Assembly (NCBI GenBank): GCA_903813345.2
Contig: CAIIXF020000001.1
Span: 17,980,001 to 18,044,000 of the forward strand
Reading direction: 5' to 3'
DNA from: Owenia fusiformis
Taxonomy: Eukaryota
DNA length: 64,000 nucleotides
Positions 3,872 to 56,888 of this stretch are shown one piece after another. Positions within the stretch are counted from its first letter, which is position 1; each line of letters starts with the position of its first letter. The position numbers and the translations under genes are program-made. A model generated the notes under the pieces. It had not been told where the DNA came from, made no database searches, and saw nothing but the letters and a program-made list of their open reading frames with translations.

Positions 3872-5640
3872 TACCGTATTCAACCATACTAGATGTAACC
3901 CTAAATAGCAAGGCATACCATATCGTATTTAACTGTATGCAACCATAAGGAACAAGGCATAACATATTTATTCAACCTTACTAGATACAACCCTAAATAG
4001 CAAGGCACAACTTATCGTATTCAACTGTATGCAACTAAAAGAAACAAGACATAACAAAATTTAAGCTTACTGGATGCAACCCTAAATAGCAAGGCAACGT
4101 ATCGTAATCAACTGTATGCAACCAAAAGTATAAGCATAAAATTTTTATTCAACCATACTTGATGCAACCCTAAATAGCAAGGTATACCATATCGTAATCA
4201 ACTGTATGCAACCAAAAGTAACAAAGCATAACATTTTTATTCAACCATACTTGATGCAACCCTAAATAGCAAGGTATACCATATCGTAATCAACTGTATG
4301 CAACCAAAAGTAACAAAGCATAACATTTTTATTCAACCATACTTGATGCAACCCTAAATAGCAAGGTATACCATATCGTAATCAACTGTATGCAACCAAA
4401 AGTAACAAAGCATAACATTTTTATTCAACCATACTTGATGCAACCCTAAATAGCAAGGTATACCATATCTTAAATCCCACTTGGGTAGCAACACAATAGA
4501 ATTTGCTGTGGTTTATTTTTAAGAATGTATGGTTTTATCAAAAGGAAAGTGCATTATTTTTCTATTGTTTTTAAAGAATGTACACTTGGCAAGCTATCAA
4601 AAACAAGTGAGACATAAATGACCATTGACAGTTTTTGATAGTTTTCATTCCCTAAAAACAATATACAAAAATACATGTACCCTTCTCTTGTTACTGTGCA
4701 TTCTTTAGAATAAAACAATTTATCAATTTTTGTTGCTATCTACATCATTGATCTTATCTTACTTACAAATATTCGGCTGTATTCAAATGCAATGTTCTGG
4801 ACTGGACAGTCACCTGTAGTGCACTGAAGCTAGACTAATTATAGCCCACTCAGTCAATTACATCAACTCACACTCATGAGGTCAATGCAACCAACTCTTT
4901 TTGTTGTTACAATTAATTGGCTAACTACATGAACAGTCAACTCAAAAGAACTCACTCACTTACATGTATCAAACCACTAATTACCCTACATGAACAGTCA
5001 ACACAAAAGAAATAAAATTTTCCAGATTAGATCATTGACCATTTACCTGCAATATACCATTTACCTGTAATAAGAATGTGTGTGATTTAAGTAAGATAAA
5101 GCATTCGAATTCGATTTGATAAGAAATAATACCTCAGGCCTTCGGCCTTCGGTGTATTATTTCTTATAAAATCTCATTCTTATGCTTTATCCAGTACGTA
5201 ATCAACTGTATGCAACCAAAAGTAACAAGGCATAACATTTTTATTCAACCATACTTGATGCAACCCTAAATAGCAAGGTATACCATATCGTCATCAACTG
5301 TATGCAACCAAAAGTAACAAGGCATAACATTTTTATTCAACCATACTCGATGCAACCCTAAATATCAAGACACCACTTATCGTATTCAACAGTATACTCG
5401 TACAAATAAAAGTAACAAAGGCATAACATTTTTATTCAACCTTACTAGATGCAACCCTAAATAACAAGACACCACTCACCGTATTCAACTGTATGCAACC
5501 ATAAATAACAAGACACCACTCACCGTATTCAACTGTATGCAACCATAAATAACAAGTACAACATATTTATTCAACCTTACTAGATGCAACTGTAAGGTAC
5601 TACGTATCGTATTCAACTGTATGCAACCATAAGGGGCATC
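3872..5640. repeat. 92-bp tandem repeat array made of two related subunits, split by an insertion
   Basis: ATTCAACC recurs at 4147, 4239, 4331 and 4423 (period 92). The array stops at 4469, resumes in register at 5198, and degenerates toward both edges. Confidence 0.92.
4470..5197. mobile_element. 728-bp TSD-less insertion with a long 3'-terminal hairpin (Crypton-like non-autonomous element; class inferred)
   Basis: Interrupts the 92-bp unit precisely at TACCATATC|GTAATC with no duplication. Hairpin 5091-5197 has a perfect 14-bp stem ATAAGAAATAATAC/GTATTATTTCTTAT and apex AGGCCttcGGCCT. Confidence 0.75.
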
Positions 5641-5931
5641 GGGCCATGAAAAAAATGTTGTGTTTTGGTTGTAGCATGGGCTTTGAAAGCCCATGGTTTG
5701 AGGGGCCCAAAATCTTTTTCCACTCAAGTTGAAATGTGCCCACCCCCCTTGTCAGCTTACGGATCCGCCAGTGCAAGCTTATTGTATGTAATCAAAAGTA
5801 AGTTGGCATACCAACCACACTTAATTCATCCATATTGCTGTTTGCTACCTTAAGGGACCATAGATACGGTATCTTCCTCAACAAGGCATAACTTAATGCA
5901 TGCAAGATAAAGTTGCATATTGTATTTAAGA

Positions 5932-6197
5932 AATATAGACCGATGAGCAGGGGTAATATTGTCGAATACACCCCGCAGGGATACGTACAAACATTTTGAA
6001 AGTTTGTGCCTAGCCCTAAGGGGTGTATTCGATGATACAACCCATGCTCTGAGGTCTATATTACGATTAGAACATGATAACTCACCAAAATGTTTTCAAT
6101 ATTCATTATGGTCCGCCATCACTACGACCCGCCGTTATGACGTCACACATTACACGTTTTACCAGGGGTATTCTTCGCGAATATACCCCGGGTGAAA
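5932..6197. mobile_element. Foldback element remnant (two hairpins)
   Basis: ~130-bp hairpin 5932-6062 (AATATAGACC/GGTCTATATT; TCGAATACACCCC/GGGGTGTATTCGA) and a second hairpin at 6158-6197. Confidence 0.6.
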
Positions 6198-6379
6198 TGT
6201 TGACTTTGTTTACAGTTTATAGAAGGAGTGAATACAGTCGTGTTCGAATCAACCGTGCATACCTTGCTGTGCAACCAAATGTAAACAGACTCACTAAATG
6301 ATTAAACCGTGCATAAATTACATGCAAGTATATTGTATGCAACTAGTGAAGAATTGCTCCTGGTTGTTGAATATATAAG

Positions 6380-9551: not shown

Positions 9552-11051
9552 CAAGTTTCAGAGCCATTAACATTCCTTGAAAATGACAATGAGCAGCCAA
9601 CAGATGTACAATCCGTAAATCTTGATGATTTTGTCAGCTCAGCTGAACGAGCCTCCAGATTCCTTGAAACAAATGACCATAATTCAAGAATAATTTTATC
9701 TTATCGTGGTAAGTGGAATCTTTCCAATTACCAATATAGCATTATTATTGTTTTTTGACACTGTGGATTAAAATATTAAAAATACACACATTCAAAATGA
9801 TTCAATTGAAACCTAGCCAGTCTGTTCAATGAATCCAATCAGAACGTCTACTAATCCACATGATACATCATAATTAAATTGCTTTTTTAAAGCGGATATT
9901 TCATACCATAACCCCAAAAATATTATAGAACGCATTGTATTTGTAATTTACTTCACACAGACATATTTGTGTATATGTGAAATAATTATATTACTTGACT
10001 TTTTTATTCCCCATTACAAGGTAAACCTATGGCAAATTATACAGCCTTCTCACAGCTGTGAGCGAGATGATAAAACTGGTCGAGTGAACTTGTTTGAGTT
10101 ATCTATTCTCCGTAAAAATATCAGAGAATGTGTGTTTATAGCGTAGCTTTGGTTTTATAAATCAATGAAGTATGATATACACGGATGAGTAAATATAGAT
10201 TATTTAAACAGAAGAGCAAAATTCTTCCATTGAAAAGTACAGAGGCGGGTACTCATGAAACATTACATGTGCCTGACTGCATCCTCATAGATCGACTAGC
10301 CACAGTGTAGAGAGCATCCACACACGTTATTATCGTAAGAAAGAGAGAACTGGGAAAGGTAAATCCATCAGGCTGGATCCGACTGGATCCGACTGTGCAT
10401 GACAAATATATCGCATATACCTACTGTTGTTCTCGTTACACTCTACCTTCCGAGGTTCTGAAATTTAAAAAAATATTAATATTTATTTAAAAATGGATTT
10501 AAAATGTTTCTTAAAAGTGAAAAATTTCATATCCAAAGTGTTAAATTTGATATTATTTTCGTTTGTTTATTTCACTGAAATTCAGTGGATTCAGATTCAA
10601 TGAATATTGTTGAGTAAAAATAGTATGCCAAAAAACTCACATGTTATTCCCGATTGTTCATTGGTGGCAAAATAACGACCAATCAGAACACAATAACGTA
10701 AATACACTCAGCTTGTATTCGCGAATGCAACTAACGACTGTTGGCTATCGGATTAACACACTATCTTACAGATAACTCATTTAAATATGAATAGTACCTG
10801 CCGCAATTTCATTTATATTCAAATGAGTTGGTCATAGAATAGTAGGTAAACCCGCTAGTCGATCCGCTCGACAAGCTCAGTGTATTTATCTTATACTGTG
10901 TTCTAACTGGCCAGAAGATGTAACGCTTGCCTACTTATATGTAACACTCACCATATGGTTCAGTGCCTTTTTGATTATTCATTTTAAATGGCAATGGGTT
11001 ACGTATTAGTTTCAACCCGTTTTGATCTTGATGTAACATACATACATAGAG

Positions 11052-11629
11052 ATTATCCTATATGAGGTTCAGGATATTGGGATTACCCCGAGGCCAATAT
11101 AATATATTTGCCCGAGGGCCGCAGGTCCCGAGGGAAAATATATTATATTGGCCAAGGGATAATCCCAATATCCTGAACCGACTATATAGGGGTTATGCAC
11201 TGGGAGGTTTTGGATACAGGGAATATCCCGAGGGATATACAATATATCTTCCTGAGGGACCGAAGGGACCAAGGGAAGATATATTGGATATCCCAAGGGA
11301 TATTTCTTGTATCCAAACCGACCGTGCATACCTGTTGTATTCCATACCTGATGAGGTTTGAAATAATAAGCACGTATCCCATTTTTTCTAAATTTTTTTC
11401 AAAATCTTTTTCACATTTTTTTGCATAATTTTTTTTCAGAATTTTTTTCACATTTTTTTCAAAACATTTTTTCTCAACATTTTTTCAAATTTTTTTGAGC
11501 GGGACATACGATTTATATGTCCCGGAGCTCCGTTGGAGCGGGACATACGAAAAATATTTGCCCGAATATGGAATATATTCCCGGTTGATATGTCCCTGAA
11601 ACCTCATAAGGTATGGAATACAGGATAAT
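11052..11629. mobile_element. Triple-hairpin foldback element (Crypton-like non-autonomous; class inferred)
   Basis: Hairpins at 11057-11190 and 11194-11330; 11331-11359 pairs with 11598-11624. 8-bp terminal IR ATTATCCT/AGGATAAT. Near-identical partial inverted copy at 56468-56585. Confidence 0.8.
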
Positions 11630-56275: not shown

Positions 56276-56585
56276 GGGTTTGGGGTAGATATCACTCGGG
56301 AATATATATCATATCTGAGGAGTTTAATTTTAATTTTAAAATTTAAATTTTTTAAGTTTAAATGTTACAATTTCATTGTATTGAACAAAAAGAATATTAC
56401 GAAAATGTTAAATATAAATATCTTGTCATTTGAAAAAGGTGGAAAAGAATATATCTACCCTAAACCCTATATCCTTGGGATATACAATACATCTTCCCTC
56501 GGTCACTTCGGTCCCTCGGGAAGATATATTGTATACCCCTCGGGATATTCCCTGTATCCAAAACCTCCCAGTGCATAACCCCTAT
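56276..56585 (-). mobile_element. Partial inverted relative of the 11052-11629 foldback element
   Basis: 56468-56585 is the near-identical reverse complement of ~11186-11303; both give EDILY.PRDIPCIQNLPVHNPY in the ORF track. An additional IR pairs 56276-56292 with 56451-56467. Confidence 0.8.
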
Positions 56586-56888
56586 GTATTCACCAGTGAT
56601 ATCAGGTTGTATATTTGTATAATAATATAATTTATCAATATAATACCATCCTCAGCATGTTACTTTATCTCATCTTTCTCTGGGTCTTTCATATAGGTGG
56701 CGTGCATGTATACAATAATTTAATATATACACCCTATTGTAAATCATATACAATTCGTTAGACCGTGTGGTAGATTATTCTTGGAAAAATCAAGTTTAAT
56801 AAAATGCAGTATTCATTGGTATATACGAATTCACTTTTTGAATTTTTTCTTCAACATGTATTGTTATGTCTAAAGTATGAATGAAAAT

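Follow-up and report, generated by a model that had tools for sequence, protein, structure and literature searches.

The window analysed is a stretch of 64,000 nt from the genome of Owenia fusiformis (contig CAIIXF020000001.1, positions 17,980,001–18,044,000 of the forward strand). The subject here is a non-coding element of 728 bp that occupies window positions 4470–5197, within an array of 92-bp satellite units. Its plus strand has no open reading frame (ORF) of 50 aa or more and its minus strand a single ORF of 61 aa; terminal inverted repeats and long direct repeats are both lacking. Other units of the array show the empty site, and nothing was duplicated around the insertion, bearing out the original prediction, made from the window sequence alone, that the element splits a satellite unit without duplication. 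That prediction had left one C at the ends ambiguous. The last C is now assigned to the element, being present in 59/59 full-length copies with a base there, and position 4469 to the host, since position −1 varies.

The family comprises ∼80 copies, with 78 exact matches to the left 19 nt in the 500-Mb host genome, and its ends are identical in every full-length copy. Among fetched loci there were 74 left–right pairs with both ends intact, copies with a damaged end being left out of the count; removing the two pairs of a dimer at locus L004 gave 72 insertion sites. The overlap between ends was 0 nt at 42 sites, 1 nt at 23, 2 nt at 4, 3 nt at 2 and 4 nt at 1. This equals the overlap of shuffled flanks, evidence that there is no target-site duplication (TSD), so that the proposed alignment of genomic copies agreed with the prediction on both termini and TSD. 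Fungal and oomycete Cryptons have direct repeats of 4–6 bp at both ends; these were not seen at the 72 sites, and they are also reported absent in animal Cryptons (PMC3212892). An empty allele was found for copy L002, exactly 727 bases of which are skipped by contigs of another run; in a second contig the site is likewise empty, at the expected length and with two substitutions. We conclude that the element is real, young and non-autonomous.

Two loci of the family have arrangements of their own. At L092 (C6), three copies with identical flanks and a right end two bases short lie at 1093-bp spacing, which we read as later tandem duplication, not transposition. The downstream flank of L028 holds the left end of a related family, in opposite orientation and directly adjoining the window-family copy.

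The 72 sites share a palindromic target consensus, TTAT-N6-NTAA, which is entered at the right border of its 6-nt spacer. Counts in the left arm were 55 for T at −10, 68 for T at −9, 60 for A at −8 and 52 for T at −7; in the right arm they were 50 for A at +1, 50 for T at +2, 72 for A at +3 and 62 for A at +4. The pattern was found in 35 sites and reproduced in 37 sites that had not been used for finding it. Target spacer and element spacer show no identity (12–23 of 72 per position). The usual site of a tyrosine recombinase has two inverted arms around 6–8 bp (PMC3212892), and by its sequence the target geometry is of this type. Insertion is one-sided, in that the element's own 7-nt spacer always lies at its right end. 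Among 79 distinct left flanks, the dimer junction alone ends in this spacer; none of the 78 non-dimer flanks does, one of them matching at 5/7 bases. Tyrosine recombinases cut 5′ of the spacer, so a top-strand crossover at the right border would mean that the bottom strand is cut.

The right end of the element is a predicted fold of unusual stability, an imperfect hairpin that none of 200 shuffles matched (z = −8.4 for the top strand, −8.0 for the bottom). At its base stands an internal complement of the left end, which we call the junction mimic (Table 1). The original prediction held that joining 4470–4480 to 5195–5197 gives a sequence matching the reverse complement of 5080–5093 at 13/14, and we confirmed this match, whose chance probability is ∼3e-7 at fixed register and window composition. 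The mimic had also been said to lie in register to extend a hairpin of ∼105 nt. The register is right, but pairing is not continuous: a 5-nt spacer (5091–5095) faces the 7-nt terminal spacer (5191–5197), leaving two bases unpaired. From internal spacer to element end is 107 nt. Across family copies the mimic deviates from the majority at 1.4%, versus 5.9% in the element body; a 16-nt stretch spanning mimic and internal spacer has 82 exact matches in the genome. The dimer at L004 is a natural head-to-tail arrangement with exactly the predicted junction, and this junction together with the mimic is predicted to fold as one duplex (z = −10.7). Exact natural junctions also occur in tandem copies at L120/L121 and L126.

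Table 1. Features of the element, its insertion site and related elements in the window
Feature	Position	Strand	Remarks
Whole non-autonomous element	4470–5197	+	Ends shared by full-length copies; + is the strand carrying the gene in recombinase-coding relatives
Left end; supplies the right-hand arm at the circle junction	4470–4480	+	Invariant in 60/60 full-length copies
Internal complement of left end (junction mimic)	5080–5090	+	10/11 pairs
Internal spacer, 5 nt	5091–5095	+	Faces the 7-nt terminal spacer
Imperfect hairpin, 95 nt	5096–5190		Outer arms 5096–5102 and 5184–5190; minus-strand apex with GAA loops
Terminal spacer, 7 nt	5191–5197	+	Always on the right end
Host target, left half	4460–4469	+	Arm 4460–4463 (T at −9, A at −8), 6-nt spacer 4464–4469; fits family consensus
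Host target, right arm NTAA	5198–5201	+	
Weak inverted repeat in element body	4509–4717		∼72% over 80 nt
Satellite array of 92-bp units, split by the insertion	3877–5512	+	Host DNA, outside the element
Second non-autonomous family, 5/7 end	5926–6248	−	3′ end matches recombinase-coding L214, L215
Third non-autonomous family, 5/7 end	11186–11621	−	Ends similar to recombinase-coding L109

Terminal spacers come in two variants only, at 59 and 13 of the 72 sites. The rarer one has T for C at window position 5192 (family position 723) and is found in more diverged copies; its T gives a clean two-base bulge, and the commoner form gives a G.T pair on the bottom strand. At L136:3277–4030, a 750-bp element with inverted ends sits at the TTAA of one copy's mimic, apparently having duplicated TTAA.

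The same layout of 5-nt and 7-nt spacers (5/7), with covarying sequences, was found in 11 other families of the O. fusiformis genome, eight of which encode recombinases of the DUF3504 (CryptonA) type. A ten-family set (the window element, the eight coding families and the family at window 11186–11621) was used for comparison. Outside the core, 92 of 100 left-end positions paired with the mimics of their own families, the mean for mimics of other families being 5.7/10; 0 of 100,000 permutations reached this result. In this set the complement to the left end spans 11–32 nt and lies 107–187 nt from the element end. The right end is fixed by at least two copies for the window element, families A, B, C and D, and the 11186–11621 family. 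An eleventh family, at window 5926–6248, has the 5/7 layout if an A at −1 (16/16) is taken as target. In the twelfth, a sister family (L097/L302) that is inserted directly behind a window-element copy at L097, left end and mimic change together and the core is unchanged. The complementarity thus covaries across families; within the window family, where the original prediction had proposed looking for covariation, the mimic is nearly invariant and no compensating change occurs among its own copies. Metagenome scans by protein and by pattern, and a viral-contig scan, gave no instance of the layout in other species.

Target preference follows the arms: the 11186–11621 family favours A at −10 (18/26) and T at +4 (19/26), where the window family favours T and A. 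Moreover, right ends have themselves received insertions from other families (at L097, L274, L280 and window 11186), as predicted if a folded end serves as target.

Further traces of these families were seen. The sister family (L097:1363 to L302:2479; L303; L304) has ∼14–20 copies, mostly of ∼1.1 kb, with fragments of an ORF on the opposite strand; read by eye, its targets have C at −8 in 4/9 cases, matching its own arm. Just beyond the sister element, a frame at L302:2912–4501 stays open for at least 530 aa and has units resembling leucine-rich repeats. In the window, the right-end hairpin of another family (11045–11185, minus strand) adjoins the element at 11186–11621, whose insertion seems to cut its mimic, and a partial 3′ end of the 11186–11621 family lies at 56469–56591 (93% over 124 nt, left part missing). 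Hairpins also occur at L128, L132, L171 and L220, where no element ends could be placed.

The link between layout and recombinase gene came from a DUF3504 search of the host genome, with 34 matches, 30 of whose loci were fetched; additional searches supplied further recombinase loci. At 12 of the 30 DUF3504 loci, the base of the 3′ hairpin consists of left-end complement, 5-nt spacer and right-arm complement, facing a 7-nt terminal spacer. The layout-bearing loci, together with L172 and L173, make up the eight coding families, of 2.0–2.6 kb. For five ORFs from these families, profile matches to DUF3504 had E values of 9e-23 to 6e-9, with weaker matches to Phage_integrase; CryptonA recombinases match DUF3504 and those of DIRS elements do not (Kojima and Jurka, PMC3212892). 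The catalytic motifs R, H-x-x-R, H and Y are kept in L105, L107 and L125, which are our candidate intact enzymes. The predicted structure for L107 (mean pLDDT 78.5) resembles QRICH1 and Cre in a Foldseek search; as aligned by VIA-align, the model matches Cre with Z 17.0 (rmsd 5.5, 279 aligned) and integron integrase with Z 14.2, and also XerA and XerH. Nearest named protein homologs are KIAA1958-like and QRICH1-named coral proteins. The coding relatives contain no reverse transcriptase, and the ORFs listed between their ends include none of Rep-helicase size. Families A and C retain a GT-AG intron at the same place, which points to movement by way of DNA.

Predicted folds of the bottom strand were more stable than those of the top strand in 10/10 families, with 19 G.T pairs on the bottom strand versus none on the top. 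Alignment of the arms of 12 hairpins gave, for the top strand, 38 C.T versus 6 A.G and 17 A.C versus 4 G.T mismatches; viewed from the bottom strand, this is 38 G.A against 6 on the top and 17 G.T against 4. Purine mismatches therefore lie on the bottom strand. The same bias, plus a GAA loop, is described for attC bottom strands of integrons (PMC5027507). Fold bias and cleavage polarity independently name the bottom strand.

That the window element works like CryptonA we regard as very likely, and the Crypton-like branch of the original interpretation, which had a tyrosine recombinase as the mover, is upheld by the fixed ends, the lack of TSD, the L004 junction, the recombinase-type target and the presence of the layout on CryptonA-coding elements. 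Probably, it is a non-autonomous CryptonA-type element that uses an integron-like folded single strand and one strand exchange. A DUF3504-class tyrosine recombinase would move it in trans, and the active strand would be the bottom one, which in coding relatives is the template for the recombinase gene. In a single-stranded circle, the joined ends would pair with the mimic, forming a duplex site composed of an arm, the 7-nt spacer, with its two extra bases, opposite the 5-nt spacer, and a second arm. The recombinase would then pair this folded site with a duplex target, two inverted arms around any 6 bases, and the bottom strands alone would be exchanged at one spacer border, leaving replication or repair to complete the reaction. 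Such an exchange would account for the absence of TSD, for the dispensability of spacer homology and for the position of the element spacer, always at the right. The element would probably be excised by the same kind of exchange, between its left end and its folded right end, with release of a single-stranded circle. In place, the right flank NTAA can pair partly with the mimic, and folding of the right end may thus need no other partner.

The closest likeness is to integron recombination between attC and attI, where a folded bottom strand with unpaired bases meets a duplex site, one exchange occurs at a fixed border and replication resolves the product (PMC4792948, PMC5027507). The attC bottom strand is likewise purine-rich and G.T-rich with a GAA loop (PMC5027507), and cassettes form tandem arrays. 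Unlike integrons, the window system is eukaryotic, has many dispersed targets instead of one attI and belongs with another recombinase family; its extra bases are in the spacer and its site is completed by the distant left end of the element. The attP of CTX phage folds into a duplex with an unpaired spacer. There too, the integrating molecule is a single-stranded circle, folded through two inverted sites and inserted by one exchange, although CTX borrows the host XerCD and a single dif site (PMC4792948), whereas coding relatives of the window element bring their own enzyme.

Published CryptonA elements (PMC3212892) agree with our families: coding members carry only a recombinase (2.0–2.6 kb here) and match DUF3504, non-autonomous derivatives are abundant, and both TSD and terminal repeats are lacking. 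They differ in that a hairpin, a junction complement and a spaced target are all absent from this account in the parts bearing on ends, the termini being given as 'n.d.' in two supplement rows. For animal Cryptons it reports that no terminal repeats were found (Kojima and Jurka 2011). Concerning ends, the relevant text of another paper remarks only on a terminal similarity to Eulor5/6 (PMC5753468), and a 2026 review treats the transposition mechanism as unproven, with a double-stranded circle assumed (PMC13565253). We found no account of the present layout in Cryptons in the literature searched, which covered neither Repbase/Dfam entries nor Goodwin 2003 or Poulter and Butler 2015; these may describe the hairpin.

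That published assumption gives the likeliest of the alternatives: CryptonA enzymes would mobilise a double-stranded circle with a fixed order of exchanges, and the complement would only splint the ends at excision, as is thought for DIRS elements. Complements of 11–32 nt to the left end are long enough for a splint. Bacterial SE elements, in which tyrosine recombinases circularise one strand, also leave a 6-bp spacer on one side after integration, with no folded site in the published description as far as it bears on this step (PMC9345347). There, however, the circle takes 6 bp of donor flank and four genes are needed, while the window spacer is the element's own and fixed. A splint has no need of a conserved 5-versus-7 mismatch, and DIRS complements in this same genome, of 38 nt and 82–88 nt, are exact. 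A duplex circle would, furthermore, set a 7-bp spacer against a 6-bp target and should produce both strand outcomes, contrary to the 78 non-dimer left flanks. We consider this alternative unlikely.

The other branch of the original interpretation was movement by a Rep-helicase, as for Helitron2/Helentron elements, the left end and its complement being asymmetric terminal inverted repeats and the hairpin a termination signal. Like the window element, these lack a TSD and have, upstream of a 3′ hairpin, a stretch to which the left end is complementary (PMC3627910); the 5′ T, the 11-nt complement in that position, the occurrence of tandem copies and a stem of 4 bp close to the left end are all in keeping with them. 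That stem is all that was seen of the 5′ hairpin overlapping the 5′ repeat in Helitron2. The complement is expected 20–30 bp from the end and is found at 107 nt (107–187 nt in ten families); in place of a T run the target shows two palindromic arms around a spacer, and A stands at +1 in 50/72 sites, T at −1 in only 26/72 and T at +1 in 12/72. Coding elements with the same end layout hold a tyrosine recombinase, a different enzyme, though no genome search was aimed at Rep-helicase genes. With both repeat position and target against it, we hold this branch to be very unlikely for the window element, and for the coding families it is largely refuted. Derivation from a DIRS retrotransposon, copied through RNA and retaining its internal complementary region as the mimic, fits the complement to both joined ends and the lack of TSD (PMC7192593), and DIRS-like elements are abundant in the host genome. 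DIRS-1 shares with our system an internal stretch complementary to joined ends, a tyrosine recombinase and insertion into its own copies, but has a reverse transcriptase, inverted terminal repeats and an exact complement (PMC7192593). The window element lacks such repeats, had only chance-level word matches to 30 integrase loci, and has a complement offset by two bases (5 versus 7) and continuous with the terminal hairpin, where DIRS complements of the same genome match exactly, with three bases shared at the junction. Coding relatives keep introns, and the favoured fold is on the antisense strand, so a DIRS origin seems highly improbable. Still harder to credit is a functionless match left by template switching at the hairpin. 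It would sit well with the near-invariant mimic and the lack of compensating changes among the family's own copies, yet the same register and covariation recur in 12 families and the mimic is better kept than the body; the cross-family covariation refutes it unless inherited without selection, which is unlikely given unrelated bodies. Several young DIRS1-like families were noted at L061–L088; their exact internal complements of 82–90 nt are themselves weak hairpins.

Several points weigh against the folded-strand CryptonA reading or narrow it. One-sided outcomes could also arise by ordered exchange on a duplex, as in the bacterial SE elements (PMC9345347). Since the families are related, events counted in the permutation and mismatch analyses lack independence, and the right end was placed by us for the single-copy L107, L172 and L173 and for L109. 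A thirteenth DUF3504 locus, L114, belongs to a coding family (with L208–L210) that occurs in tandem arrays and has a junction spacer of 6 nt, not 7 (5/6), so the two extra bases are not universal. The remaining 17 of the 30 DUF3504 loci had no resolved layout within the fetched stretch; many seem to be damaged or truncated copies or host genes. An autonomous partner, which the prediction had called for, was not found: no recombinase-coding element at the 30 integrase loci, the 30 DUF3504 loci or the further recombinase loci shares the end sequences of the window family, and the sole window-element match at the further loci is a copy adjoining an unrelated integrase gene. Unpaired and long window-family copies are old, deleted or interrupted, with no partner among them, and long copies of the sister family had no recombinase match. 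Membership in CryptonA thus rests on layout and target. Nor did sequencing reads yield the circle junction that had been suggested as a check, since none of the 15 joints listed across four runs (9 more joints were reported) connects the element's end to its start, with 18% of two raw runs read.

Crypton movement has never been shown and Crypton ends have been called featureless; the families described here supply a site, a strand, a predicted cut position and candidate enzymes. On balance we lean towards the same scheme for animal CryptonA in general: integron-type chemistry, in which a folded, bulged circle enters an NTAN-N6-NTAN-like target or the folded end of another element by one exchange, giving cassette-like arrays. 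If true, no such system was known before from eukaryotes, and folded-strand recombination would not be confined to integrons and CTX-like phages. A single protein could then serve as a tool for integrating single-stranded DNA with no double-strand break, its target preference following the arms of the element. A simple rule would suffice to assign many unclassified or 'Helitron-like' hairpin repeats of marine invertebrates, and it would become known on which DNA substrate the ancestors of ZMYM, QRICH1, KCTD1 and KIAA1958 acted.
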